Below, piece after piece: positions 28,545 through 47,306 of a stretch of DNA of 62,756 nt. The stretch is from a virus (lineage: Duplodnaviria; Caudoviricetes). Location of the stretch: positions 1 through 62,756 of IMG/VR virus record IMGVR_UViG_3300036793_000052; one strand, given 5' to 3'. Positions within the stretch are counted from its first letter, which is position 1. Every line of letters begins with the position of its first letter. The notes under the pieces were generated by a model. The model saw only the letters and a list, made by a program, of their open reading frames with translations, had not been told where the DNA came from and did no database searches. The translations under genes and the position numbers were made by a program.

Positions 28545-28918
28545 TCCAATAAACCTTCTTCTTCTTTGTCGATGACCATGCGCACTTCATGCGCTGTCTC
28601 CAAAACAGAAAAGTCATCGTCAACATCGAAGTCCGGCACAGAGATTCCGCAACGTTCGAAGTCTTCACGATTGGCGCGGATGAATCGGTGAAACTGTTTT
28701 ATCACTTCATCTCTGGAATCAAGCAGACGGTACACCCTGTCTAATTCGCGTCGGGTGCGCCGCAAAATAACGTCGGTAGTTTCTTCTTCAATTTTGCGGC
28801 GATCAGCGTTGCGTTCCATACGATCCTTGCCGGTGCGCAACGCGGCGTAAACCGTCAAGAGCGCGGTGATGATGACGCCGCCCAGCGTTAACGCCGCAGC
28901 GGTGGTGCTACTGTCCAT
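28541..28918 (-). CDS. 1-TM coiled-coil lysis-region protein
   Basis: N-terminal TM plus charged helix. Confidence 0.7.
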   Translation of the reverse strand: MDSSTTAAALTLGGVIITALLTVYAALRTGKDRMERNADRRKIEEETTDVILRRTRRELDRVYRLLDSRDEVIKQFHRFIRANREDFERCGISVPDFDVDDDFSVLETAHEVRMVIDKEEEGLLE

Positions 28919-29855
28919 GCCGTGGCCCAGTCTCCGCTTCTTCCGAAATCACTTCTGCTCCAAGGGAATCCGCTGTAGTCGGCCTGCCGGTTGGGTTGAG
29001 CGCGTGAATCATGCGGCGCTCCAAATTGCCCCGATTGGAGTAGCGCGCCCACACCAGCGTGACTGTCTGTATGCCGCGATGCAGGGTGGCGAACACAAAC
29101 GCCTCAGGCATCGCGAAACCCAACGTGGTCCCGGCCAAAGGTGATCGGCTGAGCACCGATGCGCAATACCAGCCGAGCGTGGCCAGCAGCGAAAACGAAC
29201 CGGCCAACTCATACATCAAACCCTGTTCTTTGTCGCGCAAGTGAAGCCCAAACATGACCACCACTGCACCGAAAAGGTTACCCACACCTACGGTCAGCGC
29301 GGCTGGGCGTTCAATCTCGCTCAGCACACTGACCGGGGCAATCCCAATAATGACTTGCGACAGCGACGCCAGCATCAGAAACGTTACGGACCACAGCTGG
29401 TATGGGTGGGTGTTCCAGCGGTCGCCGCTGAACACGTTGGCGTACACAATGACTCGTGACAGGTACATGCAGGCGGCGAAGAATGCTACCAGCGGCCACA
29501 AATCGGTGATCCTGGTTGGCTCTTCATAAACCATGCGGGACATACAGATCGCCATGGCCAGCCACCACGTCGCGCACAGGGATGCGCCGATGATGATGAG
29601 TTTTCCGCGCCAATGGTTGTCGTGTTTAAGCACGTAGCCGATGTTGAAGATGAATGTTGAAAGGGCCAGGACGAGCGCCCACGAGAACGGCGTGTAGGGT
29701 ACCCGGCGCACAGTGTTAAACACCGGGTCGCCCCAACCGGATTGATCAATCGCCATGCCCATCGCCACGAAATAGCCGAACAGCGTCAGCAACCATGCGG
29801 TTACTCGTTCGGCTCCACGGAACTCGGCTTCGGTCAGTCGGTTGAGAAACGGCAT
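28908..29855 (-). CDS. polytopic membrane protein (~8 TM)
   Basis: Many hydrophobic segments, downstream of holin. Confidence 0.8.
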   Translation of the reverse strand: MPFLNRLTEAEFRGAERVTAWLLTLFGYFVAMGMAIDQSGWGDPVFNTVRRVPYTPFSWALVLALSTFIFNIGYVLKHDNHWRGKLIIIGASLCATWWLAMAICMSRMVYEEPTRITDLWPLVAFFAACMYLSRVIVYANVFSGDRWNTHPYQLWSVTFLMLASLSQVIIGIAPVSVLSEIERPAALTVGVGNLFGAVVVMFGLHLRDKEQGLMYELAGSFSLLATLGWYCASVLSRSPLAGTTLGFAMPEAFVFATLHRGIQTVTLVWARYSNRGNLERRMIHALNPTGRPTTADSLGAEVISEEAETGPRHGQ

Positions 29856-30183: not shown

Positions 30184-31020
30184 TTAGATTCTCGAAAGAA
30201 TCCAGTTGATGGCCGGTCCCACGAACGGACCGTATTGCCAGTGCGGCGCGTTCATTCCCGCACTCGCAAATTTCAGGGCGTTGTAGATCGCTTCCACCGT
30301 GCCGACCGGTGCGCCCACGTCGAGCGCGATTTTCAGGAAGTCCAGTATCGAACCGGACTCCACAAAGTTATACACGCTAGTCTCCACCTTACCGGCGGAA
30401 GACTCTGCCGCCCAAGGGTTATCACCGATAGGGCAGCTCGCGTACAAGTCACCATCCAAGGCGCAGGATAGATACCAGTCCGGTGTTTGCTCAGGATGCA
30501 GCACCAGCGGGCCACCGATACCCCCGGTATCGACACCGTCAAGTGTGGACGGCATCATAAACCCTAACTCTTTGTTGCCGTTGGCGATTCCGGGCGCGCG
30601 TAGGGGGTCGCCGAAGTTGATGATGCCGCCGCGCGCAAGGTCAGGCAACAAATCGTGTTGAGACCCGTTGGGAGACAGCACGTTCTGCAGATAGTACATT
30701 CCTATCACGATGGCACCTTGGCTGTAGCCGCCGAGGAACAGCGGGTTACCCGGTGTGTGCCACTGGTCGACTTGTGCAGCCACACTGATGATGCCTTGTT
30801 TGACGCTGGTCATCATCGGGAACACCGCCGCCGGGTAGGCTGCCGGGGCCCAAAACACCGGGGGCGGATCAGGTGGTTCGATACCATCTATGTCGCAGGC
30901 GATCTGCGCATAGGGGTTCGGCTGGAAGAAGCGCCCAATGTCGGCGTCGAAACCAGGGCCGAACGGATCAGCAACCCCGGTCCCGTTGACGGAGACGAAT
31001 ATCGGTGTGCTACTTGGCAT
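30184..31020 (-). CDS. lysB: lysin B (cutinase-like esterase)
   Basis: VNGTG, YPAAVFPM..SV..G, GYSQGA, FGDP.R, GDLYA, H..Y. Confidence 0.92.
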   Translation of the reverse strand: MPSSTPIFVSVNGTGVADPFGPGFDADIGRFFQPNPYAQIACDIDGIEPPDPPPVFWAPAAYPAAVFPMMTSVKQGIISVAAQVDQWHTPGNPLFLGGYSQGAIVIGMYYLQNVLSPNGSQHDLLPDLARGGIINFGDPLRAPGIANGNKELGFMMPSTLDGVDTGGIGGPLVLHPEQTPDWYLSCALDGDLYASCPIGDNPWAAESSAGKVETSVYNFVESGSILDFLKIALDVGAPVGTVEAIYNALKFASAGMNAPHWQYGPFVGPAINWILSRI

Positions 31021-31582
31021 CTGATTCGCCACCAAGGAACGGCGGAAGCGGGTCACCAGTCAGCTCTTCGATGCCGAGCTGTTCGGTCAGCGGCGGCTTC
31101 ACGTAATCCGGTGACAGTACTTCATCCTTCATCAGGTCAGGGTAGGTACGTAACGCCGCCTTAGCCGCAACAACGAGCATGTCCCAAGCGTCATGCTGTG
31201 CTTTGTTTTGCAGAGTCTTCTTGCGCCCGAACAGTTTCGCCAGCGAGGTTGCCGCATCACCCAAGGATGCCGAAACGTTCTGGCCTTCGGGGTATGCGTA
31301 GTCCACACTAAGCCCGTACGGGTGTGCCTCGTATCCCCAAGCGTACAAACGGTATTGAAGCGCCTTACCGGTGGAACCGTCAACACCGTCGAACTTGTTG
31401 GCGATGTCGGCTGGCCCGGCGGCGTCATTGGGACCGGCACCGAAGAGCAAGCTACGCAAGCTGCGTCGCGGTGGCCGGATGCGGGCCGGATGGTATGAGC
31501 TGAGCCGGGCCGCGCGGTGCGCCTGGTATCCGGCGAACGTTGCGATCAGCGCCGAAACAATGCTGATAATGTTTGGGATCAT
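31010..31582 (-). CDS. membrane-anchored hypothetical protein
   Basis: N-terminal TM; ATGA-coupled to lysin A. Confidence 0.65.
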   Translation of the reverse strand: MIPNIISIVSALIATFAGYQAHRAARLSSYHPARIRPPRRSLRSLLFGAGPNDAAGPADIANKFDGVDGSTGKALQYRLYAWGYEAHPYGLSVDYAYPEGQNVSASLGDAATSLAKLFGRKKTLQNKAQHDAWDMLVVAAKAALRTYPDLMKDEVLSPDYVKPPLTEQLGIEELTGDPLPPFLGGESDAK

Positions 31583-32976
31583 GCTGTAGTGCCTCCTGAA
31601 CCTATAATGCTCCACACCTTGTCGCGCAGAGTCGAACCTGTTGATGGCCAGCCGGATTCACCCGGTCCCATCTGCTGACATAGCCAAGTCAGTTTGTCGT
31701 CTGTGCTCGCTGCTGAAAGCCATTGATCGAACTCGGCCACCGGGTCAACGGGCGTCGGTGCTGGTGCCGGTGCTGGTGCCGGTGCCGGTACGGCGTCGGG
31801 GATGAAAGCCCCAATGTCGTCGGCGTGCGCCTCGTCCACGTCGCATTGCACCCCGGCGTAGGTCACGTAGCCAACATCGTTGCGCTGCATGACCGCGATA
31901 GCGGAGTCAATGTTGCCGCCGGACCAGGCTTCGGTCTGCCACAGGTAGTCGGCGTGGCCGGATTGGTTGGCGCGCATCAAAATCCAGTACGCACCATAGA
32001 TAGCGGCGCAGCTTTTACCCGAACCGTTAACACCCAGAACACCTTTCGCGGCGTCAAGGAACGCTTCAATCGGGCTGTCATCTTCGGGTGGTTCATCGAA
32101 GTCAGCTGAGAAGTAGATGACCGGCCGGTATCCGGCGACGTTCACCTCGGCTGCGGCGGCTGCCGACAGTAGCCCGTTGACGTAGGCGAGCGCGGCGGCA
32201 GCATCATCTGCCCCGTTGTCGGACAACATGAACGTGGCTGTGGTCTCATAGTTGAAGACAACCTGAATACCGTTCTGGCACAAGTCAACGAATTCGTCAG
32301 CTGTCAACAGTTTCTTCGGTAAGCCGGTGCCGCCGTCGTTGATGTAGCGGCAGACGAACGTAACTCCGGCCTGCGCGAGTACAGCGCCCGGTATCTGGCC
32401 TCCGGCGTAGTCGAGTCCTTGCGGGTATCCCATGGGTTGCCTCCACTTTGTGTCTTCACTGATTGGTTCGCCGTCCCAAACCCACCAGTCGTTCCAGTAA
32501 TCGCTTGCAACACCAGTGATTTCGGGTGGTGCGGTGCAGACGCCGGAGTCGCCGTTGGATTCCATGTTCCAGCCGTCGATCCACGCGGCCATGTGGCTGT
32601 CCGGCCCCCCGCCGCCGTGCATAATCATCACCTTGACGGGATAGTTGCCGTTCACAAGGTCGGCTTGCGTGGTTTGCCGCCAGCTGCCGTTGCTGGCAGC
32701 CCAGCCCGCGAATGTTTCAGTGCTGAAGAGACGCTGGTATCCGCGCCCAATCCAGTAGTCGAAGCCATACAATGCGGTTGCGATGACAACCCCGGCGAGC
32801 CCTGAGCAGTCGAAGGACACACCGAAGTTGTTTGAATCCCCCACGCCCGCATAGGCATACGGGTCGCCCGGTCCTTCATCAATGCTGTCGTGTTGTAGTA
32901 GTGGCTGTTGGCCGGTGGTGAGCCGGTCAAGGAATAGTCGTTTGGCGGCTTCAACATTGCTGCGTAGTAAGTTCAT
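31579..32976 (-). CDS. lysA: lysin A (Cys/His peptidase plus DUF1906/GH25-like domain)
   Basis: FDCSGL...SHM...ES; LDYA..VCRY..K.L..E, IYFSADFD, IYG, WQT.AWS. Confidence 0.88.
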   Translation of the reverse strand: MNLLRSNVEAAKRLFLDRLTTGQQPLLQHDSIDEGPGDPYAYAGVGDSNNFGVSFDCSGLAGVVIATALYGFDYWIGRGYQRLFSTETFAGWAASNGSWRQTTQADLVNGNYPVKVMIMHGGGGPDSHMAAWIDGWNMESNGDSGVCTAPPEITGVASDYWNDWWVWDGEPISEDTKWRQPMGYPQGLDYAGGQIPGAVLAQAGVTFVCRYINDGGTGLPKKLLTADEFVDLCQNGIQVVFNYETTATFMLSDNGADDAAAALAYVNGLLSAAAAAEVNVAGYRPVIYFSADFDEPPEDDSPIEAFLDAAKGVLGVNGSGKSCAAIYGAYWILMRANQSGHADYLWQTEAWSGGNIDSAIAVMQRNDVGYVTYAGVQCDVDEAHADDIGAFIPDAVPAPAPAPAPAPTPVDPVAEFDQWLSAASTDDKLTWLCQQMGPGESGWPSTGSTLRDKVWSIIGSGGTTA

Positions 32977-35046: not shown

Positions 35047-37230
35047 CTAGTTAGCAAGCGTGACTTCGAAATAGGTTTGGCTGCCAGAGGATTCCCCGGT
35101 AAATGATAGTGCCGACATTGCGCCGGTCCCGGCTGGGCCGGGGCTGAGGAAGTATCCTGGTATGAGAATGTCTCCTGCTTGGCAGGCGATGGCTTCGGTG
35201 CCGCCGAAGAATCCGGTGTTGTATTGCCCGCCGAATCCGTTGCTGAAGAAGCCGGGGCTGCCGAAGAAGCGTTCTTCTTGAAGCGTGCCCGCACTGTTGT
35301 ATCGGGAGACGACGGGGCAGATAGATACTGCGCCGCTGCTGCAGGTCGCAGCTGAGATGATCGACCGTATGCCTACGATGTAGCGGTCGGCGTTAGCAAC
35401 CTGAATAGCGTTTAACCCGACGCCTGATACGCCGCTAATCAGTCCGGTGAATTGTGTTACGTCGGGGCTGTTTTCGGAGGCGGCGTCGAAGAATGCGCCG
35501 CTGCCGCCATTAGAGAAGAGAGAGACGCCTCCTGTGGCAGTGTTTTGTGTTATTGATGCGGTGCCGGTGCGGTACGTGCGGATACCGGAACCCGGCACCG
35601 ACGGCGGGGTGTTGTCTGCGCAACCAACATAGGATGCGGGCGCAGGCGTCACCTGCCCGTTGTTGTAAGTGTCGGAACGGAAGCCCCAGTAGCGGTGCGA
35701 TGAATCAATCGGGAATATGGCCTCGCCGTGGCTGCCGTCGTTGATGAAGTCGAAAACTTGTGTGTCCCCCGAATACCCTTGGTATCTGGCTGGATTGTTA
35801 CCGACACCGGCATCCATGGTGAAGTTAAGGTTTAGGACGCTGACAGGGCCGGTCGCCCAAACGTGTTGCACGCCACTGATATAACAGCCGATCTCATATT
35901 GCAGGGCGAGGCCGCTGTTGAGGAACACGACACCGTAAACGTAGTCGCTCGGATTGGTGATCGCGTTAGCGCGCAGGAGCGCAAAGTTTTTGGAGCCAGC
36001 ACCGTTCGGGAATCCGGCGAGGCTTGCATACAATTTTTGGTAGTCGGTGTTTGTGAACGCTTGCCCACCAGCACCGTTGAAGATTGAGATGGCCGACACG
36101 TCACCGTCGTTGACTTCGCTCCACGCCGCATCGCCGTTGCTGATGACGAAATGCCCCGACCCGTGGGAGCTGGCACCGGGAATGTTGCCGTAGGTTGTGT
36201 TGACCGGTACCGCAGACCAAGTTGAGTACTGGTTGAAGTTGATGTTCAACGATTGACCGTTGTTGGTTGCCCCGGTGGACTGTGTTGCGTTCTGCTGCAT
36301 TTGAGCGGCTAAAGCGTTCAAGGTGCTGGCGATCAGATCAATGCCCTGATTGGCTGCGCCGAGCGGGCTAGACCCGACGCTTCCGGCGGCTGCGCTGACC
36401 GCGTTGAAATGTGTTAGCAGGTCAGCGGATTGGCCCGGCCCGGTACCGGCAGTAATGTTCGGTATCAGCGATGAACCGAATAGTCCGGTGTTGACTTTGC
36501 TTGCATCCAACAGTGGGACGGCGGCGGGCTGCACTGTGGTGGCGATGGTGGTGCCGCCGAAAAGCGCGGTCAATAGGCCGTTGTAGTTGCCGGTGGTGAC
36601 CGCGTTGTATGCCGCCGTGTCAACCCCGTTGAGCCACGACACCAAGGCGTTGTAGTCCCCGGCTGTTCCGCCGACAACATCGTTGATGAACGCCTGCCAC
36701 GTCGAAGTTGGCAGCAGCGCACCAAGACTCGTTTCCAGGTTTGTGATCTGCGTTTGCGGGATCATCGGCAACAGTGTTGGGCTCAGTGTGCCGCTACCAA
36801 TTTTGGAGGCGTCTATCAGCGGCACCGCGCCCGGCCATATCGTGTCAAGCGCCGTCGCGGTCTCGTTGTACAAAGAGGTCAACAGGTTCGACCAGTCGCC
36901 GCTAGAGACGGCCTGCTCAAACGTGGCCGCATACTCGGCTAAAAGGTTTGTGGCACTAGAGTTCCCGCCGCCAGCACCGATTAGCTGAGCTAGGATAGAT
37001 GACAGGCTACTGAAGCCGCCGAGCTGTGTTTGAACGTTCGGCAGGAATGTTGACGGGTCGATACCGATAGCTGCGTCGAACGCTTCAACAGTGTATTGCC
37101 AAAAGTTTTGCAAACCCTGCTGGAACGCTGCCGCCGCCTGCTTAGCAATCGAAGACGTATCATAAGTCATCTTCGACGCAAGCGGATTATAGTCCGGCTG
37201 CGGCAAACTGGAATCGTAACCTCTTGGCAT
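35047..37230 (-). CDS. minor tail protein
   Basis: LIDASKI.SG repeats, TNTDYQ, beta-rich C-terminus. Confidence 0.8.
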   Translation of the reverse strand: MPRGYDSSLPQPDYNPLASKMTYDTSSIAKQAAAAFQQGLQNFWQYTVEAFDAAIGIDPSTFLPNVQTQLGGFSSLSSILAQLIGAGGGNSSATNLLAEYAATFEQAVSSGDWSNLLTSLYNETATALDTIWPGAVPLIDASKIGSGTLSPTLLPMIPQTQITNLETSLGALLPTSTWQAFINDVVGGTAGDYNALVSWLNGVDTAAYNAVTTGNYNGLLTALFGGTTIATTVQPAAVPLLDASKVNTGLFGSSLIPNITAGTGPGQSADLLTHFNAVSAAAGSVGSSPLGAANQGIDLIASTLNALAAQMQQNATQSTGATNNGQSLNINFNQYSTWSAVPVNTTYGNIPGASSHGSGHFVISNGDAAWSEVNDGDVSAISIFNGAGGQAFTNTDYQKLYASLAGFPNGAGSKNFALLRANAITNPSDYVYGVVFLNSGLALQYEIGCYISGVQHVWATGPVSVLNLNFTMDAGVGNNPARYQGYSGDTQVFDFINDGSHGEAIFPIDSSHRYWGFRSDTYNNGQVTPAPASYVGCADNTPPSVPGSGIRTYRTGTASITQNTATGGVSLFSNGGSGAFFDAASENSPDVTQFTGLISGVSGVGLNAIQVANADRYIVGIRSIISAATCSSGAVSICPVVSRYNSAGTLQEERFFGSPGFFSNGFGGQYNTGFFGGTEAIACQAGDILIPGYFLSPGPAGTGAMSALSFTGESSGSQTYFEVTLAN

Positions 37231-37233
37231 AAG

Positions 37234-38367
37234 CTAGCTTTGAGTCGGAACCGGCACCACGCCGATAAGCATGCCGCTACCGGCCGGGTTGTAGGTGAAC
37301 GCACCAATCGCCCCATCATTGGCCAGCACAACATAGATGGTGCCCTGCGCAGGGTCAGTATGGTTGGGCGGCACATAAGCCAGCGCGTTGGTTGGTGTGA
37401 CAGCCGCACCAGGACTACCCGACGTAGCGTACTCAGCTTCAATGCTGGTGCGCTGCAACGGTGTCCCGTAGCCGCGCCCAATCTGCGTGCCAGCCGAAGG
37501 GCTGCCCAACAAAACCTGGCAACCCACCTGAATAATGTTGAACAGGTTAGTCGGATCAAGTTCCGCGCCAAGCACATTGATATGCCCGCTGAGCACAACG
37601 GGTTTCCACGCGAACGGTCTCGGCGGAATCGGGAACGCGCAAATCTGCTGACCGGTGACAGCCGCACCGGACGCCTCAGTGAAATACGTTGACGGCACCG
37701 AATAAACTTCCATGCCAAGCAATTCCAGGTCTTCGGGCGTAAACTTTTGCGTGGTCGCATTCCACACCGGCACCTGACCACCAAGCGTGCCACCGCTGTT
37801 GTCATAGTCGGCCGCGTCACGAATAGGTCCGCTCGGCCCGGCCTCGCCCCTGATGGAGTCCTGGTCGAACTGGAACAGCAAACTAACGTTTAACCCGCTG
37901 TTGGATATACTCGGCGTGACCTCAATTGGCTGCGTGAGACTGTCGGACTGGCCGGACGGTACAAGCTCGGCGCTGGCCGCTATGAGCGGTGGTGGACCGA
38001 CAGGACCGGGTGTGCCCATCTGCTTCGAATACCACGTCGAGCCAGACCACATCCACACGACATTGCCTATCCACCAAGCCTTCCCAATGTCGGCGTCAAT
38101 GTTCTCAAGGTTCTGCGGCAACTGAGTCGGGTCGGTGAAGTCGTCCTCATACTGCATTTTGACGATATCGGATGGCTCACCGGGGTCACCCTGGTCGCCC
38201 TTGATGGCGTCGAGAACGATTGCGCCTTCATTGTCGTGCAGCTCAAATGAGCCGATCACACCCGAAGGCACGTTCAAATCGCTTGCATAACCCCAGAAGT
38301 GGAGTGTGGCCATCATCGAACCGAAATAGGTGTTAGCCCCAGCGGGTGCCTGCACGGGTGCGGTCAT
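37234..38367 (-). CDS. minor tail protein
   Basis: Short collagen-like GxxG segments; IPP.PFAWKPVV. Confidence 0.8.
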   Translation of the reverse strand: MTAPVQAPAGANTYFGSMMATLHFWGYASDLNVPSGVIGSFELHDNEGAIVLDAIKGDQGDPGEPSDIVKMQYEDDFTDPTQLPQNLENIDADIGKAWWIGNVVWMWSGSTWYSKQMGTPGPVGPPPLIAASAELVPSGQSDSLTQPIEVTPSISNSGLNVSLLFQFDQDSIRGEAGPSGPIRDAADYDNSGGTLGGQVPVWNATTQKFTPEDLELLGMEVYSVPSTYFTEASGAAVTGQQICAFPIPPRPFAWKPVVLSGHINVLGAELDPTNLFNIIQVGCQVLLGSPSAGTQIGRGYGTPLQRTSIEAEYATSGSPGAAVTPTNALAYVPPNHTDPAQGTIYVVLANDGAIGAFTYNPAGSGMLIGVVPVPTQS

Positions 38368-38894
38368 TTAGTGTACTGCCTTCCGGTCCAATAGTTTCCG
38401 TCGTTGACATCCGGCTCATCTTGAATCTGAATGTTGGTTTGAACATGCCAGCCGGGATTCGGCGGCAAATCAGGTGTTTCGGGTCCACCCAAGGCGCGCA
38501 TCGCAATCGCGCGCTGGCGGGGCTCCAGGGAACGGATTTCCGCCATCGTCATCGAAGCATAATCCAGTTCATCGGGTTCGTTGATGTCAACCCACTCAAC
38601 AGCATCCGGTGCCAAACCTTTAGCGATCAGCCGCCGGGGTTTGATCTCCCGCTTAGATTCATCAATGCGCCAACCGCAGCGCACCAAATGCCACGCGATG
38701 ATCGTGGAGAAGAATGAAATGTCAAGTGTTGAACCATCTTTGGATTCGGGATAGGTCAAGTCCCGCATCAGCTCAAGCATGGTGGTGTTCTTCTCCGATA
38801 CTGCCACCGCCGACGTGATAGCCTCCTGCATAGCTGACGGCCGCTGTGGTGTCCCATCTTCGTCATCTGAAGCAAATGCGTTGTCACTCATCAC
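38364..38894 (-). CDS. minor tail protein (DUF2744-like)
   Basis: AWHL..CGW...IK.R...WVDINEPD. Confidence 0.7.
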   Translation of the reverse strand: MMSDNAFASDDEDGTPQRPSAMQEAITSAVAVSEKNTTMLELMRDLTYPESKDGSTLDISFFSTIIAWHLVRCGWRIDESKREIKPRRLIAKGLAPDAVEWVDINEPDELDYASMTMAEIRSLEPRQRAIAMRALGGPETPDLPPNPGWHVQTNIQIQDEPDVNDGNYWTGRQYTK

Positions 38895-38907: not shown

Positions 38908-41655
38908 TTAAAATAATTCCGAGCTTCCCATCCACATGCCGAACATATTCCATATACCAGCGATTGATCGCATGGCCTTACTCACCGGGTCGACGTCACC
39001 CCAATCGGTTCCGATTGAAACTTCCCACCGTAGCGGATTGTCTTTGTCCCAGCTGTACTTATAGCTTGACACCTGGTCGACAAAAATCAAGTTACCCATC
39101 TGGAAGCCGACACGATCCCCCAGGAAATAATCGCGGAAAAGGCAGTACGGGTAGCCCATCGCAACAGTGGTTTTGTAAACGCTGTACGGTCTCGTTTTCC
39201 ATTGTGCTGCACGCAATCCCAGCACACCGCTGACTGTCCACGCCGCCCCAGTGCCGGGTTCCATCTGCTCTAGGAAACCGGCGTCACCAGTCCAGAACGC
39301 GCGGGCCGGATCAGTCCACACCTGGAAGGCCGCGACGGTATCGTCCAGCTCTCCCTGGTACAGCTCGTCTAGTCCTGCACCGATGGGTGGCCCACCGGCG
39401 GAACCGAAAAGCCCTGCGACAATTACGGTTTGGAGCTGAGACAACCCGAACTTGATGCCGAAGGTAATCAAATCGTTGATCCAGCCAGGCGACTTACCGC
39501 CTACGGCAACGGTTTTCGCCATCGTCGTATGCTGAATGCGTTCTGCCTCAATCATTCCCGAATGCTCGGTGTCCATGTAGACAGCCCACGGCGGCTGCGG
39601 CGCGGTCTCAAACCACCGGTCAATCGTCGGGGTGTCAGCGTCGACAAGCTTCTGGCCGTCACTGCTCAGGTAGTAGGTGTCACCTTCGGCGTCGTACTGC
39701 GGCAATAGGACGCTGGTCACCAAATCCGTTGCGGTAGCAGAGATCATCTTGATAGGGCCATCAAGGGCGGTGCCCGTCCAACCGGTGGTGCCCGACTTGT
39801 CTTCGACGGCAAGGATGACTGCGTTTCGTGTCGGCCTTGTCATCTGGTCGGTGACCTCACCGAGCGCTGGGGTGGTGCCGAAGAAGTTACCCAACCCGGC
39901 CAGCTCAGGGTTAGGGCTGGTGAGGTCACCCTTCATGTAAAGGTAAGCGCGCCAAATGCATCCGGCGTCTTCAAGGATCGTTTGGCTTGATGCGTGCAAG
40001 TCCTGCCACCGGGACGTGAACACTTCGAACCGGCTGGTATCGAACACCGGGTTAAGCCATTGGGGCTGCACGGGCCAGGAGAGCGGGTTTATATATCCGA
40101 GGTTGAAATCAACGTTCTGCCCAAGCCACGCAACAGGATTCAGTAAGTTAGCGAACAGCGACAAGCCGGGCTCGTAGGCTCGCGCAAGGTTGGCGATCAG
40201 CGAAAGGGTAAGTGCTGTACGGCAATTCCACGGCAGAATCCACATTTTCGGGATCTGCAGTTCCGGTGGGAACAGCGGATTCGCGCGAGCGGTTATGTGC
40301 TTCAAATGCTCCCGATTTGACACAGCCGTCAATTCCACTGTGTGGACACCACGACTGTCCCGCTTACCGTTGATAGTGGTGATTTTACCGCCCCAACGGT
40401 ACGGCCAATCCAGCATGGTCGGAATCGGATCGAACGCAATATTCAAATCCTGCTCGGCGCGGCGATCGTATTGGATGAAGTCGCTGAGCCAGTTGTCTTT
40501 TCGGATAACCATGTTAGCTGTGCCGGAGTCAAGCATCTGCTCTTCGACGCTCGCTGAAATCTCCTGCGCCAACGTACCTATCACATTGTTGTTGCCGTCC
40601 AAAAGCCTCGCCATCGGCCGCTGATGGTATTCGGCCACGACGGCTTGCCGCCGGGCGTCCAAGTACCGGTACATCGCTAGCGGGTCTTTAGCCGGGTCCG
40701 GTGGCCCGCCAGCACCGATCTGCGCGAAGCTGTTCGCAAAGTCCTGATAGTTGAGGACACCGTTGCTGACTTGCCGATAGTTGGGCTGCATAAGGGAATT
40801 CAGGTAATCCACTGCGAGCTGCACTGCCGTCTCGGTGGTCCCCGGCAGGCCTTGGTATGGTTGGCTTCCATAGTTGCCGTGCCCGGTGGTGTTGTCGTTG
40901 GGCGACAGGAACGGGAAAAACATTTCGGTAAGCTCAGTCCAAATGGCTGGTATCTGGGCGGCGAGATCGGGTTGCAGACTTTGAAGTAGCGCAACAACTT
41001 CCGAGAAGTATGTGAACTCTGTTCCGGTCAAAACTATGTCGGCGACGGCGGTCGAGTCCTGCCCGGCTGTGTCGTCGCCGGTTGTTGTGAACGGGTCCAA
41101 CGGGTTTGAGTCCGCGAAGTCCCACCACGAGGTAGGTGTGCCGGTCATCCGGTATTGTGCGCCGAAGCAACCGTGCCCGCCGGGGTCGGTGCCACCCGGT
41201 ATGGTGTGCCCGGCCTCGCGAACACTTGAGCCAAACGTTACCGCCCCAAGGAAATCGCCTGCCCGGTCAGCTAATTGGCCACCGGGCAGCAGAGCCTTGT
41301 AGACGAGCGAAGCGACGACTGAGCCTAGACTGTACGCTGAGAACGCGAATTTGCCTGGTGTGGCGGCGATTAAATCTATGCAGTGGTTTGCGCCCTCTTG
41401 GCAGCCCGCCAGGATGGTGTAGCCCGGCAGGAAAGCCTCGTTGCCGACGCCGTCCCACGCCATGTGTGCGCCAGGGTAATCAATCGCCTCTACTTGATAT
41501 TTCGCCGGGTCGACCTGTTCGCCGACCTGCATGTCGAACTGTCCGCCGAAGCTACCAATGTAGGGCCGGAATGTCGCCGCCGTGGTCGCGGCGAACGTGT
41601 ACAGTGTGGCCTGCGGGGCCGGGATGATGCTGGAGTTGACGTTACCGGCGGGCAT
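38908..41655 (-). CDS. tail hub minor tail protein with N-terminal LysB-like alpha/beta hydrolase
   Basis: N-terminal ~290 aa: DYPG, AYSLGS, TFGS..R, DPFT, GHGNY; rest: RLLD.N, RWGG, VGGKSP.WIN, DYFLGDRVGF. Confidence 0.85.
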   Translation of the reverse strand: MPAGNVNSSIIPAPQATLYTFAATTAATFRPYIGSFGGQFDMQVGEQVDPAKYQVEAIDYPGAHMAWDGVGNEAFLPGYTILAGCQEGANHCIDLIAATPGKFAFSAYSLGSVVASLVYKALLPGGQLADRAGDFLGAVTFGSSVREAGHTIPGGTDPGGHGCFGAQYRMTGTPTSWWDFADSNPLDPFTTTGDDTAGQDSTAVADIVLTGTEFTYFSEVVALLQSLQPDLAAQIPAIWTELTEMFFPFLSPNDNTTGHGNYGSQPYQGLPGTTETAVQLAVDYLNSLMQPNYRQVSNGVLNYQDFANSFAQIGAGGPPDPAKDPLAMYRYLDARRQAVVAEYHQRPMARLLDGNNNVIGTLAQEISASVEEQMLDSGTANMVIRKDNWLSDFIQYDRRAEQDLNIAFDPIPTMLDWPYRWGGKITTINGKRDSRGVHTVELTAVSNREHLKHITARANPLFPPELQIPKMWILPWNCRTALTLSLIANLARAYEPGLSLFANLLNPVAWLGQNVDFNLGYINPLSWPVQPQWLNPVFDTSRFEVFTSRWQDLHASSQTILEDAGCIWRAYLYMKGDLTSPNPELAGLGNFFGTTPALGEVTDQMTRPTRNAVILAVEDKSGTTGWTGTALDGPIKMISATATDLVTSVLLPQYDAEGDTYYLSSDGQKLVDADTPTIDRWFETAPQPPWAVYMDTEHSGMIEAERIQHTTMAKTVAVGGKSPGWINDLITFGIKFGLSQLQTVIVAGLFGSAGGPPIGAGLDELYQGELDDTVAAFQVWTDPARAFWTGDAGFLEQMEPGTGAAWTVSGVLGLRAAQWKTRPYSVYKTTVAMGYPYCLFRDYFLGDRVGFQMGNLIFVDQVSSYKYSWDKDNPLRWEVSIGTDWGDVDPVSKAMRSIAGIWNMFGMWMGSSELF

Positions 41656-41840
41656 TAGTCGGGCACCGATACAGCGTTGTGGGAGTACGTGTGTGATCCT
41701 CTGCCGGTGGACTTTGCGACCGGTCGGCACCAGCACATCGGCACGGTATGAATACGGCTATCACATACCGGTGTTGTATGAACCTCGCGGGTGAAGCAAC
41801 CATCATCACCATAGTCGAGAATGATGTTCTGCCAGGCCAT
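41655..41840 (-). CDS. small Cys/His protein (61 aa)
   Basis: TAATG overlaps on both sides; H..P..D...H....CWC.P...H. Confidence 0.6.
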   Translation of the reverse strand: MAWQNIILDYGDDGCFTREVHTTPVCDSRIHTVPMCWCRPVAKSTGRGSHTYSHNAVSVPD

Positions 41841-41992
41841 TACGCTTCCCTGTCTATCTTGTCGAGTGCATGTGTAGCCCACATTCGCATGGTCGGAAAC
41901 TGGCGTTGACACAGGCAGCGTACTTGTTCGCCCCAGCCGACCCGACTCGGAAAATGTTGGCACAAAACATATTCGCGCTGCATCACAATCAT
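41840..41992 (-). CDS. small Cys/His protein (50 aa)
   Basis: ATGA overlap; QHFP..CLC..W..H. Confidence 0.55.
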   Translation of the reverse strand: MIVMQREYVLCQHFPSRVGWGEQVRCLCQRQFPTMRMWATHALDKIDREA

Positions 41993-43119
41993 CCATAGCC
42001 CATGTAGAACTGTTGCGGCATCAAAAGCTGTACAGTGCCATCGTTTTGGGAGTGGTACACCTTGTATGTGCAGAGTGTTCGCTTCGGGGCCGGTACAAAG
42101 AAGTGGCCGGAGAACTGTTTCCACAGCGGTTCTTTTTGTGTGGTGAAGTCTCCCATGATGAGATCCAAAAAGCCTGAGTTGTTTAGGATTTGGTAGAACA
42201 GCGGATTAACCGGGTCGGTCATTTCGGTGATGGTCTGCTGCTGTGGGTCGGTATCAACCATATAAGTGCCGCGCGTCGTGTCGGTTAACGGCATGGCTAT
42301 CATATTGCCGGTGCCGGGGCCGTCTTCAATCCAACAGCGCCCCGGCGAGGACACCAGGAACTTCGGCCACTGCGTCATATCGCTGTTGTTCCACGTCGTA
42401 ACATGGCCGCTGCCAACATCTTTACCCGGCACCAAGGTTCCACCGGCACCCTGTAGGACGTCACCGAGAAACTGATTGATGGTGTTCTCAAGCTGGTACA
42501 GAATCTCATCCCACGGCGTGGCCGTCGCTGAAGTGTTGGCCCATCCGGCGGTGTTGGTTACTTTGCCGTAGTACGGCTGCCCGGCGGCAATAACCATGTC
42601 CCAGCGGAAATAGTTGTTTTCGTAAGCTGTCGGGTCCAATTCCATTGGCGTCATTGGTGCTTCAGCCAACCTGACTTTAAGCCACCGCCAGCCGTGCGTT
42701 TTGGTGTAGATACCGAGCCACGAGTCTTGGTCGACAGCCCAAGCGCGCCACCATCTTTGCTCCTGCATCATGTATTGCATCGAGCCGGGCGCACCGAAAG
42801 TGTCTACGCCAACGTCTATTCCGAGGTTGATGGTGCGTTTGTCCCAGTCGGTGCGTTCATAGTATGCGCCGATCTGGTATGGCCCGTCAGTCCATAGCGA
42901 TTTGAACTGTGAAAGCATAAGCCCGACAAGGTGGTTGGACATAGACAAGCCTTGTTTACCTGCGTATGGCCCGGCCAAGTCCCACCATGATCCGTCGACG
43001 CCGATCAGTACGGCCTGAATGCCGGTGAAACCGATGTAGGGGTTGTTCTCAAGGATGGTTGATGATGGTCCACGCACATAGGCTGGGACGCCGACGTTGA
43101 AAGGATATGGCAGTGTCAT
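41989..43119 (-). CDS. minor tail protein (Dit-like)
   Basis: IGVDGSWWDLAG..AG.QG, GWRWLKVRL; follows tape measure. Confidence 0.85.
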   Translation of the reverse strand: MTLPYPFNVGVPAYVRGPSSTILENNPYIGFTGIQAVLIGVDGSWWDLAGPYAGKQGLSMSNHLVGLMLSQFKSLWTDGPYQIGAYYERTDWDKRTINLGIDVGVDTFGAPGSMQYMMQEQRWWRAWAVDQDSWLGIYTKTHGWRWLKVRLAEAPMTPMELDPTAYENNYFRWDMVIAAGQPYYGKVTNTAGWANTSATATPWDEILYQLENTINQFLGDVLQGAGGTLVPGKDVGSGHVTTWNNSDMTQWPKFLVSSPGRCWIEDGPGTGNMIAMPLTDTTRGTYMVDTDPQQQTITEMTDPVNPLFYQILNNSGFLDLIMGDFTTQKEPLWKQFSGHFFVPAPKRTLCTYKVYHSQNDGTVQLLMPQQFYMGYG

Positions 43120-46100
43120 GTTCCGTAAACCCTTGAAGAGTCGATTGTTCCAGTGGAGCGCAGTGTTGCTGTCTTAGCGTGTTGAATCACTGGGGCAATC
43201 GCCTCGTTGCTGTGTCCAAAGCTAGCTCCTTCGAAGTGCTGGCTGGCGTCAATCATCGGGCCACCACCACCCATGCCGCCACCGCCGCCTGCAGCGCTTG
43301 GCATTTCGCCACGGGGCACCAGCTGACCCTGACTGTTCACAGCATAGTTACCGGCACCGGCACCAACCATGTTGCTTCCCCGGCCGGACATCAACGCGCC
43401 AGCCATGTTCGATCCCTTACCGGACATCAGCGCGCCAAGGAAACTGAAAATCACCGAGCCCGCATGCATCGCCGTGGTGCCGAACGGGTTGATGAACCCT
43501 TCGGGCAGGAATGATTGCATGATCCCGTTAGTGCCAATGTCGGCAAGCGATTTCAGCGAATCGTCGCCGCCCTGTGCGCCGAATAGCCCAGCAAGACCAC
43601 CCTTGCCGCCGCGTCCACCACCCCCGGCTTGCGCTTCACCAAGGTCCGACTTCGCTTCCCCGAGTTCACGATTCAGCTTAGCGAGACGATCATTAAGTAC
43701 ATCGGTTTGCTGTTGTGTGCGCGGCTTCTTCCCAGTCGGATGGTCAATCTTGTCTTGAGTTTCTTTGATTTTCGTTGTAAGGTCAGCAATTTTATCGTTC
43801 AGCTCGCGAATTTTGTGACCGCCGCGACCGCCGCCGACGCCCATGCCTTCGCCGCCGTCGCCCGCGCTCAGGCCGTCACCGACACCAGCCATGTAGGTTT
43901 TCGCGTCTCCGAGGTGTTGGGAGATCCAGTCCGGCCCGTAGCCGCCGCCTTCGACGCCGCCTTGTGCTGGTGTCTTCGAGATGCGGTCGCCGATGGACAT
44001 ATCGGAGCTTGTCTTGTCCAGCCGGTCATAGAATCCGGACACCTGGCCTTGCAGCGTGTCTCGGTTTTTGTAGCTGGCGTCCTGCTGGAACAGTCCTTTG
44101 TGGTCGCCGTTCGCTGCAGTGGTTGACAGGCCGGATTCGCCGATGGAGTCCGCGAGCACCCATTGGATTTGTTCGTCGGTGTAGCCGCGCCGTTTGCCTT
44201 CGGCGATGATGGCTGCCGCCGCCTGCTGCTTGGAGTCGCCGCCGGACGGGGCACCGGACGGGGCTGAGATTCCCGGTGAGCTGCCAGCACCCACGCCGCT
44301 ACCTGATCCGCCGCCGATGTCCACGCCACCGCTGGAACCGCCGCTTGTGTCGCCAGCGTTGGCGGGGTCGGATGAGTAGTCGGTGCCGTCGCCGACGATG
44401 CCGCTGCTGTCCGGACCGTCATCGCCACCACCGCCACCGCCGGAGTCGCCGCCACCGGAGCCACTGAATAGCCCGCCGCCACCGCCGCCGGAGCTGGGGG
44501 TTGCCCAGCCGCCGCCAGCGAACCACGAACCGGTTTTACCACCCGAAACGTCAAGGTACATATGGTGATCGAATTCGCTGGCATCGGCCCCGGCGGCTTT
44601 CGACCCGACACGCGCACCCGAAATGCCGTTGCTTGTAGTGGATTCCGCGTTTAACCCGTTAGGTAGGGTCAGGGCTGTGTGGCCTGCGCCGCCGCCGCCG
44701 TGGTCGTACCAGGCGACACGCAGTGAGCCGGAAGGGCCGGTGCCGGTTTTGAATCCACGCTTGCCGAGCCAATCGGCCTCATTGGTGGTGTTCATTCGCG
44801 AGCTGAGCGGCGACATGCCCAGGTAGGCGTTGACGACTGCACTGACAAGTCCTGAGCAGTCGATTCCGCTCGGCCCGAAACCGCCCATCTGGTATTGGGC
44901 GCGGTTACCGCCAGTCCCCCCGGTCAGCTGGGAGAGAATCGCCTCAGCGGAGCTTAGCCCGCCAGCGCCACGAAAACCGCCGTCATCAAATTTCATGCCA
45001 TGCGAGGGAACACCGCTCCACTTTTTGTCGCTATACATTCCTTCATGACCTTCAACACCCAACAGTTTCCCGGTTTGGTGCCAAAGTTTAAGGGAGCGTG
45101 CACGTTTCGCCGGATGCAACGGTATGAACGCTTCACCACCGGTTGATGGTTCGGCCCATTGCACCAAGCCGCCGGGGCGCGCTGAAGCGATGGTGGCCTG
45201 TTGCGGCAGGTTGTAGCCGCCATCGGCGAAGCCGGGAATGTGCGGTAAGTGTATGTGGCTGAGAGCCCCCTTGATTGCATCACCAATGTCTTTGCCCAGG
45301 TTGCCGATACCAGCGATGATCTTCTGCGGTAGGTGTTCGAAGAATTCGATGACCTTGATACCCTCGTTGGCGAGGTCGCGGAGAAAGTGCCCGGCGTCGG
45401 CGAGCGCGGGCTTCACATCTTTTTGGATGAAGTCGCCTACGTCGTGGAATGCGCTGCCAACACTCTTAAGTGGGCCGCTTATGGCGTCGGTGAACGAATG
45501 CCACAGCTCTGTGACGATATGCCACAAGCCTTCAGCCGCATGCCAAAGTCCTTCTAGGACATGCCATACCGCCGTAACGGTAGTAAGTCCTAAATCAAAT
45601 GCGGCTTTAAGGGTGGTGCCGATTAGACCGGCTAGTATGTCAAACCCTAAGGCGTGGAAGATGTTTCCGAAGGCGTGGCCGATGTTCCCGAAGGCGTGCA
45701 TGACGTTTCCGATGGCGTGACCGATGTTACCGAAGGCGTGCACAACGTTTCGGACCGCATGCCCACCGTTTAAGAAGGCGTGGTTGACGTTTAGGGCCGC
45801 GTGTTCAACATTGCTGAAGGCATGCATGATGTTGGACCCGGCGTGTTCAACGTTCAGGAATGCGTGCTGCACGTTTCCGATGGCGTGTCCGAAAGCTTCA
45901 CCGTAGGAACGGATTTGGTCGGAGTGAGTTTTGAGCCAAGTTCCGGCCGTCTTGATGGCGTTGACGAATGATGAGACGGCGGTGCCCATTCCGCTCGCCA
46001 TGTTCTCGTGTGAATCTTTGACCCCGGCGACTGTTCCCTTGGCGAATGATCCGACGCCGGAGACCACGCCGGAGATCAGCCCGCCGATAGGGCCGAAGAC

Positions 46101-47306
46101 GCCGTGCACAAACGAGCTGATCTGCTTGGCGTGCGCCTGCAGGAAAGCGTCGAACTGTTCAAGCTTGGCGTTGATGGCCTGCAAACCTTTCGGGATGGAA
46201 CCGAAAAACGGTGCAACCAAATCACTCCCGATGGCCTTAAGGTTCTCGCCCATCTTATGTGTCTGTGCGCCAAGGGATTCCGACATACGTTCCGCGCCGT
46301 CGTGGGTGTGCTTGGCCAGCTCATCCATGAAAAGCTGATATGTCACGCCGTGGTGCTTCACGAAATCTTGGAACTGCTCTTGCGTTAGGTTGAGATCCTT
46401 TTTAATCCACGTCGCGATAGGTAATCCCTGCCGGGTGAAGCTCATCATTTCACGCATGGTCGCGGTGCCACGGGTGCGCAGGCGGTCCATCATGCCCGCG
46501 ACGGCTTCGACTGGTGCGCCGGTCAACGCGGCGGCGTTCTGAATCTCCTTGAGATAATTAACCATATCTTGGCCGGGTTTGATGCCCTGCAGGAGAGCGC
46601 CTTTCATCACCCCGGCCATCTCCTCCATGCCGAACTGTGTGCCCTTAACGGACTCCTGCATGTCTTTGAAGACGGCGTTCACCTGTTGGCCGGAGTAGCC
46701 CATCGCTTCAAGCTGTTCCCTGGTGTGCTGCAACGTTTCCAGGCGTTCCATACCACCTTTGAGCACTTCGAACGCGCCCGCGATGGTGGTCACTGCCGCG
46801 CCGAGCGCAAGCATCGGACCGGACACCAAACCCATTATGCCGCCGGACATTGCGGAGGTGGTCTCTTTAGCTTTGGTTTCCATCTTCTCGAAACCAGCAA
46901 CCCCGGCCGTACCGATCGCGCCGACACCAGTTAATGCGGCTTCGACGCCGCCGCTGAGGCCGCGCCCAATCTTGTTGCCGACAGCGGACATTCGATCAGT
47001 GGAGCGCAACAGCCCGTTAGTGAACCGTTGACCCATGATGGCACCGGCTTTGTCGATGTCGCCGCCAGCTTCGTCAAGAATTTTTTGGCTGTAGTTGCGG
47101 AAGGTGCGGGCCGGATGTACTGCGGCACCGAACTTGTCCGAGAACCTCATACCGGCGGCTTCGCCTGCTACACCAGCCTTCTGTTTGGTGTCGGCAAGGT
47201 CTTTGTCGACTTGGGACATGGCGCTGCCGTACTTAACGGACAGCGAAATATAGCCCCGCGCAAGCTCTGCGCCTTCAGCTACGCCATTGCCGCCGGTTGA
47301 GGTCAC
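43116..47306 (-). CDS. tape measure protein with peptidoglycan-hydrolase-like domains
   Basis: ELARGYISL, tape-measure domain (SVKGTQFGMEE), WAEP.TGGEAFIP, IDCSG..GHT, GESGL..GLFQQ. Confidence 0.92.
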   Translation of the reverse strand: MTSTGGNGVAEGAELARGYISLSVKYGSAMSQVDKDLADTKQKAGVAGEAAGMRFSDKFGAAVHPARTFRNYSQKILDEAGGDIDKAGAIMGQRFTNGLLRSTDRMSAVGNKIGRGLSGGVEAALTGVGAIGTAGVAGFEKMETKAKETTSAMSGGIMGLVSGPMLALGAAVTTIAGAFEVLKGGMERLETLQHTREQLEAMGYSGQQVNAVFKDMQESVKGTQFGMEEMAGVMKGALLQGIKPGQDMVNYLKEIQNAAALTGAPVEAVAGMMDRLRTRGTATMREMMSFTRQGLPIATWIKKDLNLTQEQFQDFVKHHGVTYQLFMDELAKHTHDGAERMSESLGAQTHKMGENLKAIGSDLVAPFFGSIPKGLQAINAKLEQFDAFLQAHAKQISSFVHGVFGPIGGLISGVVSGVGSFAKGTVAGVKDSHENMASGMGTAVSSFVNAIKTAGTWLKTHSDQIRSYGEAFGHAIGNVQHAFLNVEHAGSNIMHAFSNVEHAALNVNHAFLNGGHAVRNVVHAFGNIGHAIGNVMHAFGNIGHAFGNIFHALGFDILAGLIGTTLKAAFDLGLTTVTAVWHVLEGLWHAAEGLWHIVTELWHSFTDAISGPLKSVGSAFHDVGDFIQKDVKPALADAGHFLRDLANEGIKVIEFFEHLPQKIIAGIGNLGKDIGDAIKGALSHIHLPHIPGFADGGYNLPQQATIASARPGGLVQWAEPSTGGEAFIPLHPAKRARSLKLWHQTGKLLGVEGHEGMYSDKKWSGVPSHGMKFDDGGFRGAGGLSSAEAILSQLTGGTGGNRAQYQMGGFGPSGIDCSGLVSAVVNAYLGMSPLSSRMNTTNEADWLGKRGFKTGTGPSGSLRVAWYDHGGGGAGHTALTLPNGLNAESTTSNGISGARVGSKAAGADASEFDHHMYLDVSGGKTGSWFAGGGWATPSSGGGGGGLFSGSGGGDSGGGGGGDDGPDSSGIVGDGTDYSSDPANAGDTSGGSSGGVDIGGGSGSGVGAGSSPGISAPSGAPSGGDSKQQAAAAIIAEGKRRGYTDEQIQWVLADSIGESGLSTTAANGDHKGLFQQDASYKNRDTLQGQVSGFYDRLDKTSSDMSIGDRISKTPAQGGVEGGGYGPDWISQHLGDAKTYMAGVGDGLSAGDGGEGMGVGGGRGGHKIRELNDKIADLTTKIKETQDKIDHPTGKKPRTQQQTDVLNDRLAKLNRELGEAKSDLGEAQAGGGGRGGKGGLAGLFGAQGGDDSLKSLADIGTNGIMQSFLPEGFINPFGTTAMHAGSVIFSFLGALMSGKGSNMAGALMSGRGSNMVGAGAGNYAVNSQGQLVPRGEMPSAAGGGGGMGGGGPMIDASQHFEGASFGHSNEAIAPVIQHAKTATLRSTGTIDSSRVYGT

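Follow-up and report, generated by a model that had tools for sequence, protein, structure and literature searches.

A lysin B-type esterase domain fused to the baseplate hub of a metagenome-derived phage: a candidate virion-borne mycolyl esterase

Introduction

Tal-type tail lysins are virion-associated cell-wall hydrolases situated on the tail tips of phages. Lysin B (LysB) of phage D29 (gp12, PDB 3HC7) is a mycolylarabinogalactan esterase, encoded as a free protein alongside lysin A and holin in the lysis cassette. The present work concerns P0001, a protein of 915 amino acids (aa) in which a LysB-type esterase domain precedes a tail-tip structural protein, the baseplate hub. It is encoded in the IMG/VR virus record IMGVR_UViG_3300036793_000052 (Duplodnaviria; Caudoviricetes), the genome of an uncultured soil phage, recorded as complete at 62,756 bp (CheckV estimate 100%, GC 0.58), and this whole stretch of DNA is referred to below as the window.

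The role attributed to LysB has been restricted to lysis in the available portions of two reviews, with entry being credited to peptidoglycan-hydrolase motifs of the tape measure protein (PMC6116005; PMC13314858), such as the one described for phage TM4 (Piuri and Hatfull 2006, via PMC13314858). Passage of the mycolic-acid outer membrane at entry has been characterized as poorly defined in the accessible part of a preprint on mycobacteriophages (bioRxiv 10.64898/2026.10.09.757826). For phage Douge, the available text of a cryo-electron tomography study describes a hub trimer under the Dit ring, a central fibre that penetrates the outer membrane, a Dit-hub-BppU core that then stays attached to it, and a hole of ~3.7 nm at the junction during ejection (PMC13033339).

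When compared to the hubs of Bxb1 (gp25, 9D93) and Douge (BHP, 8ZDO), P0001 is homologous and structurally similar over aa 325-915, and the gene order of tape measure, Dit and hub is the same. The solved hubs of those phages span ~590-600 aa and start at the N-helix, whereas P0001 has an extra enzyme module of 300 aa in front. One continuous open reading frame (ORF) covalently joins the enzyme domain and the tail-tip structural protein, as in tail-associated lysins. P0001 thus resembles the TM4 tape measure protein and the Tal-type lysins in having a putative envelope-degrading enzyme within a structural protein of the tail tip, which would act locally at entry. It differs from these peptidoglycan-directed proteins in being a predicted lipid or mycolyl esterase for the outer membrane, placed at the N-terminus of the hub. 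Virion-borne hydrolases are used at entry in other viruses as well, examples being the O-antigen-deacetylating tailspike esterases and the N-terminal phospholipase A2 of parvovirus VP1, and these differ from P0001 in fold, substrate and host, serving as an analogy only.

The esterase domain of P0001

A first-pass annotation, made from the letters of the sequence, had placed a LysB-like esterase fused to a tail hub protein at positions 38908-41655. These coordinates were borne out, the region being a single minus-strand ORF that runs from an ATG at 41655 to a stop codon at 38908 with zero internal stops. The start is backed by an orthologue, P0003, which has the same N-terminal starting point, and by a TAATG overlap with the stop codon of the preceding 113-aa ORF. 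All of the motifs listed by that annotation have been located (AYSLG at aa 107-111, TFGSS..R at 140-146, DPFT at 187 and GHGNY at 258), and its assignment of the first ~290 aa to a cutinase or LysB type is upheld by family, profile and fold comparisons.

At the family level, aa 11-290 match PHROG 102, the LysB family, with an E-value of 5e-30. A profile of 54 relatives compared to D29 LysB by hhalign gave a probability of 99.5% and an E-value of 1.7e-22; this alignment pairs Ser109 with Ser82 and Asp187 with Asp166, and stops short of His259. In a 28-sequence alignment (A2), Ser109, Asp187 and His259 share columns with Ser82, Asp166 and His240 of D29, the triad numbering being that of the accessible part of PMC7022511. 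The aspartate of DPFT, previously put forward as a candidate, is therefore the residue aligned to the D29 triad acid.

Structure prediction against D29 LysB, which had been proposed as a check, led to the same family. An AlphaFold 2 (AF2) model of aa 1-330 reached a mean predicted local distance difference test score (pLDDT) of 85.9 and a predicted template modelling score (pTM) of 0.85, and its top PDB match was D29 LysB 3hc7, with Foldseek (E 2.2e-7, TMt 0.68) as well as with VIA (Z 20.8, root-mean-square deviation 4.0, 231/252 residues aligned, identity ~20%). The next matches were Rv3802c and MSMEG_6394 (PDB 5W95 and 3AJA; Z 20.0 and 18.5 by VIA), followed by fungal cutinases. Rv3802c and MSMEG_6394 share the cutinase-like fold; nonetheless, they are cell-envelope enzymes of the host, only 14% identical and without a link to phage tails. 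A LysB-specific linker domain has been described between the Asp and His residues, its length being 83 residues in D29 as against 12 in cutinases (PMC7022511, available portion). In P0001 this interval comprises 71 residues and is mostly helical, with predicted helices at aa 196-210, 217-227 and 235-243 in the AF2 model, which agrees with the linker domain that separates LysB from cutinases.

Taken together, D29 LysB and the P0001 module have in common a cutinase-like alpha/beta-hydrolase fold, an aligned triad and a long helical insertion between Asp and His. Unlike D29 LysB, the P0001 module carries a clade motif of its own, GHTIPGGTDPGGHG, lies in a distant clade and is fused to a hub within the tail gene block. 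These comparisons confirm aa ~10-290 of P0001 as a LysB-type cutinase-fold esterase domain, with a Ser-Asp-His triad that is predicted to be intact on the basis of alignment.

The baseplate hub and its junction with the esterase

The remainder of P0001 had been described as the conserved post-Dit minor tail protein. Its nature as a tail hub stood, and its position directly after Dit did not, since a 113-aa ORF lies in between. A match to Pfam Sipho_Gp37 (PF14594) was detected at aa 350-883, scoring 142.2 bits (cut-off 26.2), and the hub part also matches PHROG 110 (E 1.8e-162). By phmmer, P0001 retrieves the PDB entry 9d93 'Baseplate hub, gp25' (E 7.2e-37), and a Foldseek search with the full-length model ranks the Bxb1 tail tip (9d93_Oa, E 9.2e-38) and the Douge baseplate (8zdo_s, E 3.7e-30) above gp27- and VgrG-type hubs. 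The identity of aa ~325-915 as a siphophage baseplate hub is thereby confirmed.

The full-length model is confident in both modules, with a pLDDT below 50 at aa 293-310 and a pTM of 0.57, so that it fixes no mutual orientation of the two modules, which look to be tethered by a flexible linker of ~30 residues. The closest unfused hub, P0004 (614 aa), has 469 identical residues over 618 alignment columns, and its start aligns with aa 301. The hub N-helix spans aa 325-343, and the start of P0004 thus indicates that the esterase was attached at the native hub N-terminus, immediately ahead of this helix. An internal in-frame start at Met289, which would yield an unfused hub, was considered and rejected, as no Shine-Dalgarno-like sequence occurs upstream.

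Table 1. Features of the window, with positions counted from its first letter
Feature	Position	Strand	Basis
P0001, esterase-hub fusion, 915 aa	38908..41655 (stop codon included)	-	ORF list and translation
LysB-like cutinase-fold esterase module, aa 1-297 (folded core ~aa 10-290)	40765..41655	-	PHROG 102, hhalign, AF2, Foldseek, VIA
Ser109 codon, predicted nucleophile in AYSLG	41329..41331	-	Aligned to D29 LysB Ser82 (alignment A2, hhalign)
Asp187 codon (DPFT), predicted triad acid	41095..41097	-	Aligned to D29 Asp166 (A2, hhalign); at least 90% conserved in A2 and A3
His259 codon (GHGNY), predicted triad base	40879..40881	-	Aligned to D29 His240 (A2); invariant in A1
Linker, aa 291-324, join with native hub N-terminus ~aa 298-301	40684..40785	-	Low pLDDT, P0004 start, low conservation
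Baseplate hub module (Sipho_Gp37 / gp27-like), aa 325-915	38911..40683	-	PF14594, PHROG 110, phmmer, Foldseek
113-aa Cys-rich ORF, between Dit and hub gene	41655..41996	-	Weak PHROG 2864 match, E 7e-4
Dit-type distal tail protein	41989..43119	-	PHROG 106, E 7.6e-66
Tape measure protein	43116..47306	-	Several tape-measure PHROGs, Pfam TMP_3
Three minor tail genes	38364-38894, 37234-38367, 35047-37230 (35047..38894)	-	PHROGs 1697, 1565, 737, 'tail' category
Lysin A (endolysin)	31579..32976	-	PHROGs 13480 and 6707 'endolysin'; Pfam Rv2525c_GlyHyd-like, E 2.8e-10
201-aa ORF, between lysin A and LysB	31010-31615	-	Without family match
Separate canonical lysin B, P0002	30184..31020	-	PHROG 102, E 1.5e-30
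315-aa ORF, just downstream of LysB	28908-29855	-	Without family match

Esterase-tail fusions among relatives

The same architecture occurs in the orthologue P0003 (909 aa, 82% identical), which is recorded on five contigs. The esterases of the two proteins are identical at 215/290 positions and their hubs at 511/590, and the linker is the least conserved part (21/35). An exhaustive search with the esterase module recovered 264 representative proteins at E-values up to 0.001; among the 150 matches listed, 62 are at least 500 aa in length, 8 are of 400-499 aa and 80 are shorter than 400 aa. A batch scan against PHROG covered 53 of these 62 long proteins, and PHROG 102 was found in all 53. Minor tail families were also detected (PHROG 746 and 346 in 13 proteins each, 2840 in 10, 3493 in nine, 1885 in eight and 737 in seven), along with PHROG 2813 'virion structural protein' (four), the Dit family 106 (two) and the endolysin family 317 (five), these counts not being additive because a single protein can match several of the families.

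Individually scanned proteins include two hub fusions (L003 and P0072), two Dit fusions (L006 and P0076) and several in which the partner is another minor tail family (P0080, P0082, P0087, P0090, P0101, P0103 and L019), and PF14594 is carried by P0062, P0066, P0067 and P0070 according to precomputed annotation. In L003 (855 aa), an esterase with an intact triad accompanies a hub that is 67% identical to those of Che9d and Yoshi. The hub of P0001 is closest to that of Gaia, with 51.5% identity, indicating that two different hub lineages carry the module.

A FastTree phylogeny was built from 151 domain copies (LG+gamma, midpoint root, branch support left aside), leaving out 32 matches with coverage below 200 out of 300 model positions. 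The P0001 domain falls inside a clade made almost wholly of fused proteins, and D29 LysB and the separate LysB of the window (P0002) fall in a distant, mostly free-standing clade. A free esterase beside a tail-borne one occurs in the window, on the contig shared by L006 and L007, and also in L011. Genome contigs were searched with alignment A6, which is smaller than A3. No relatives were returned when the single N-domain protein or P0004 was compared with viral contigs, or alignment A1 with genome contigs, and a metagenome scan gave three loci only, one of them duplicating L006.

The catalytic residues were surveyed in the 140 domain copies for which all three triad columns are occupied, a further 47 copies being partial. 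Ser-Asp-His is present in 110 of the 140 and Ser-Glu-His in seven; 18 copies lack the Ser and five show other combinations. The Ser-less copy is often the second of a tandem pair, as in P0067 and P0070.

Several architectures were observed besides these. Tandem esterase modules occur in the metagenomic hub proteins P0066, P0067 and P0070 (1114-1116 aa); in P0067 and P0070 the second copy, which is the one most like that of the window, carries a Gly where the nucleophile Ser would be and the first keeps Ser, and in P0066 both copies have Ser. In the IMG/VR sequences L004:5964-9833 and L005:6969-9896, the head-and-packaging family PHROG 2813 is joined to one or two modules of the LysB type, which indicates that the esterase is also found on virion proteins without a tail annotation. 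The esterase is fused to the phage family PHROG 3329/282 (Pfam DUF7172) in P0078, where it is N-terminal and Ser-less, and in P0124, where it is C-terminal, hinting that DUF7172 is a virion or tail component too. On the metagenome contig L011, a 1922-aa ORF (L011:5677-11442) contains a Ser-less module (GHGLG) near its N-terminus, and a free esterase-like ORF of 278 aa, with the elbow GTLQG, follows it directly (L011:11723-12556). Two free-standing proteins, P0088 (315 aa) and P0092 (328 aa), have the motif GHTxPGGxDPGGHG and long N-terminal extensions that end in a lipobox-like L-x-A-C; this suggests secreted lipoprotein esterases, which may be of bacterial rather than phage origin.

Gene neighborhood in the window

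The genes follow the order tape measure protein, Dit, 113-aa ORF, hub, three minor tail genes, lysin A, 201-aa ORF and LysB (Table 1). The first-pass annotation had drawn a parallel between the fused domain and the separate lysin B, and it holds in that both match PHROG 102. P0002 also retrieves D29 LysB 3hc7 by phmmer (E 1.2e-17) and has GYSQG, Asp and His. The tail-borne esterase is only ~24% identical to P0002, which indicates that it did not arise by recent duplication of the lysis gene.

The tape measure protein matches PHROG 700 'endolysin' at aa 1025-1103 and shows an NlpC/P60 match below threshold at aa 804-840 (Pfam, E 0.0012). Short repeats of the His-Ala-Phe-x-Asn type have also been observed in this protein at ~aa 490-570, together with long Gly-rich stretches. 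The 330 nucleotides that separate Dit from the hub gene are taken up by the 113-aa ORF, whose ATG shares nucleotides with the Dit stop codon (ATGGATGA) and whose own stop does so with the hub ATG. This overlap with both neighbours suggests a real, translationally coupled gene. No Pfam match was detected for this ORF, and an Rfam scan of 41500-42200 was empty. In the relative L002, the esterase ORF comes directly after Dit. Of the ORFs that flank LysB, the 315-aa one has a translation that looks multi-pass hydrophobic, and either this or the 201-aa ORF could be a holin or other lysis accessory protein.

Host and occurrence in known phages

A tblastn search with the esterase matched 301 phage records, 298 of which are Mycobacterium phages, and 60 rows sampled evenly from the 301 are all annotated as lysin B, endolysin or hypothetical. 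Relatives in bacterial assemblies belong to Mycobacterium sp., Mycolicibacterium frederiksbergense, a Mycobacteriaceae metagenome-assembled genome (MAG) and unclassified Actinomycetota MAGs, with the Mycobacteriaceae MAG encoding an esterase-minor-tail fusion of 759 aa. We infer that the host is probably a mycolic-acid-containing actinobacterium of the Mycobacteriaceae.

Five fused proteins were queried by tblastn against 50,697 deposited phage records. P0001, L003, P0101, P0087 and L006 matched 2891, 2546, 989, 1193 and 1004 records, respectively, with zero records covering at least 80% in each of the five cases. The fused form was thus not found in this collection, which may omit the genome of the window or its very near relatives.

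No report of a tail protein containing a LysB or cutinase domain was found in the literature, supplements being outside the search. The words esterase, LysB and cutinase are absent from the papers on the Douge (PMC13033339) and the Claus/Corndog/Mysterious (PMC13252515) baseplates, and esterase or LysB terms are absent from the accessible part of 10.64898/2026.10.09.757826 and from the abstract of PMC13419713. In the available portions of PMC6116005, PMC13732428, PMC5773508 and PMC13314858, LysB- or cutinase-like terms are used for lysis enzymes only and never for a tail protein.

Proposed function

The fused domain is probably a virion-borne esterase that would hydrolyse mycolyl esters locally at entry. 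Opening of the mycomembrane at infection by a virion-borne mycolyl esterase, as proposed in the first-pass annotation, is the best-supported reading, and under it we infer the presence of the enzyme in the virion, its catalysis, its substrate and the timing of its action. This reading is favoured by the covalent link to an essential tail-tip protein, by the repeated fusions to tail-tip proteins and by the tomography of Douge. With the core placed on the outer membrane as in that phage, an esterase tethered to the hub would by analogy sit at the surface of the mycomembrane, and since it would form part of an essential structural protein, three copies per virion would be expected at the tail tip.

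In the proposed sequence of events, a LysB-type serine esterase (aa 1-297) would be held at the N-terminus of a trimeric baseplate hub, and upon docking of the baseplate to the mycomembrane these tethered enzymes would cleave mycolyl esters. The substrates they would encounter first are the trehalose mycolates in the outer leaflet, below which lie the mycolyl-arabinogalactan links. The lipid barrier would be loosened locally, which may allow the central fibre and the tape measure protein, with its hydrolase-like segments, to reach the peptidoglycan. The separate LysB of the lysis cassette would perform the same chemistry from the inside, at lysis.

A number of observations weigh against this proposal. 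The nucleophile elbow of P0001 reads AYSLG and not GYSQG as in D29, the LysB pattern being G/A/D-Y/F-S-Q-G; an Ala in the first position occurs among LysBs (PMC7022511, accessible part), and members of the clade to which P0001 belongs typically have Leu at the Gln position. The G-N-P (GXP) motif between Ser and Asp, conserved and important in LysB and cutinases according to the available text of PMC7022511, reads G142-S143-S144 in P0001. The G-S-S form is common to P0001, P0003 and P0066, and close relatives carry G-S-P or G-N-P. A single-sequence phmmer search of the N-terminal 330 aa against PDB sequences does not reach 3hc7, and a Pfam scan of P0001 at E-values up to 1 shows no Cutinase or PE-PPE domain. 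The phmmer matches that do appear near E 1 (proteasome subunits and the pertussis toxin S5 chain) were set aside as chance, and the identity of the domain was decided by profile and fold comparison. The ester linking mycolates to arabinogalactan lies under the outer leaflet, so that the classical LysB substrate is not the first to be reached from outside. In addition, 13 of the 18 Ser-less copies belong to proteins of at least 500 aa, and P0078 and P0101 hold a single copy that is Ser-less, which indicates that some tail-borne copies must work without catalysis.

These last observations lend themselves to an alternative that we consider rather unlikely for P0001 itself, in which the domain is an esterase-derived module that binds lipids or glycolipids for receptor recognition or anchoring and holds the baseplate on mycolate lipids, hydrolysis being dispensable or incidental. 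The copies with Gly for Ser in P0078 and P0101, and the second copies in P0067, P0070, P0089 and P0094, keep the remaining fold and the tail fusion, and 13 of the 68 complete copies in long proteins are Ser-less; the G-S-S of P0001 at the place where G-N-P is expected is a further point in favour of binding. However, 52 of the same 68 copies keep the triad, Ser, Asp and His are all kept in P0001, P0003, L002, L003 and L006, and P0067 and P0070, which are tandem proteins, each have an intact copy alongside the Ser-less one.

An improbable role, suggested by analogy with the receptor-destroying enzymes of other viruses, would be that of a release enzyme which strips lipid receptors from debris and from lysed cells, frees the progeny and may block superinfection, with no part in opening the envelope. 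The progeny of LysB-deficient phages have been described as trapped in poorly lysed cells (PMC6116005, available portion), which indicates that mycolate-rich debris can hinder release. Against such a role, a free LysB for lysis is already encoded, and the fusions are specific to those tail-tip proteins (hub, Dit and minor tail) that touch the membrane at ejection.

Phage tail genes are expressed late, and the domain is a member of the LysB family, so a further notion would be that unassembled, late-made hub adds LysB activity at lysis, its location in the tail being incidental. This is very improbable, as a canonical LysB is present in the lysis cassette and the two esterases are ~24% identical and belong to distant clades; a role in lysis also leaves unexplained the repeated fusion of the tail-borne clade to different virion proteins. 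An artefact of chimeric assembly, or of adjacent genes merged by sequencing error, is hardly credible even though P0001 comes from a metagenome-derived virus contig and its junction was found in one DNA run only (a soil metagenome, probably the source sample) with no RNA runs listed as containing it, given that the frame is continuous, P0003 has the same fusion on other contigs, independent fusions occur in L002, L003 and P0062-P0073, and unfused hubs begin exactly at the join.

Implications

Acceptance of a mycolyl esterase acting at entry would give the tail hub of this phage a concrete entry mechanism that is open to testing. A wider and more tentative proposal, to which we give somewhat less than even weight, is that this LysB-like lineage constitutes a mobile tail-tip module of environmental mycobacteriophages, exchanged between hub, Dit and fibre-like minor tail proteins and at times degenerating to a Ser-less lipid-binding form. 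The module might then be the missing device by which the mycomembrane is breached or gripped, needed for wild hosts whose outer lipids are unlike those of M. smegmatis mc2 155. If this is true, its absence from the thousands of phages that were isolated on this laboratory strain would mean that it is needed for infection of wild hosts and helps decide it. The esterase fusions define a family of natural tail-tip modules, and they may offer a source of esterases that have evolved to act on the mycomembrane from outside, a property wanted for LysB enzymes used as added antimycobacterial agents.

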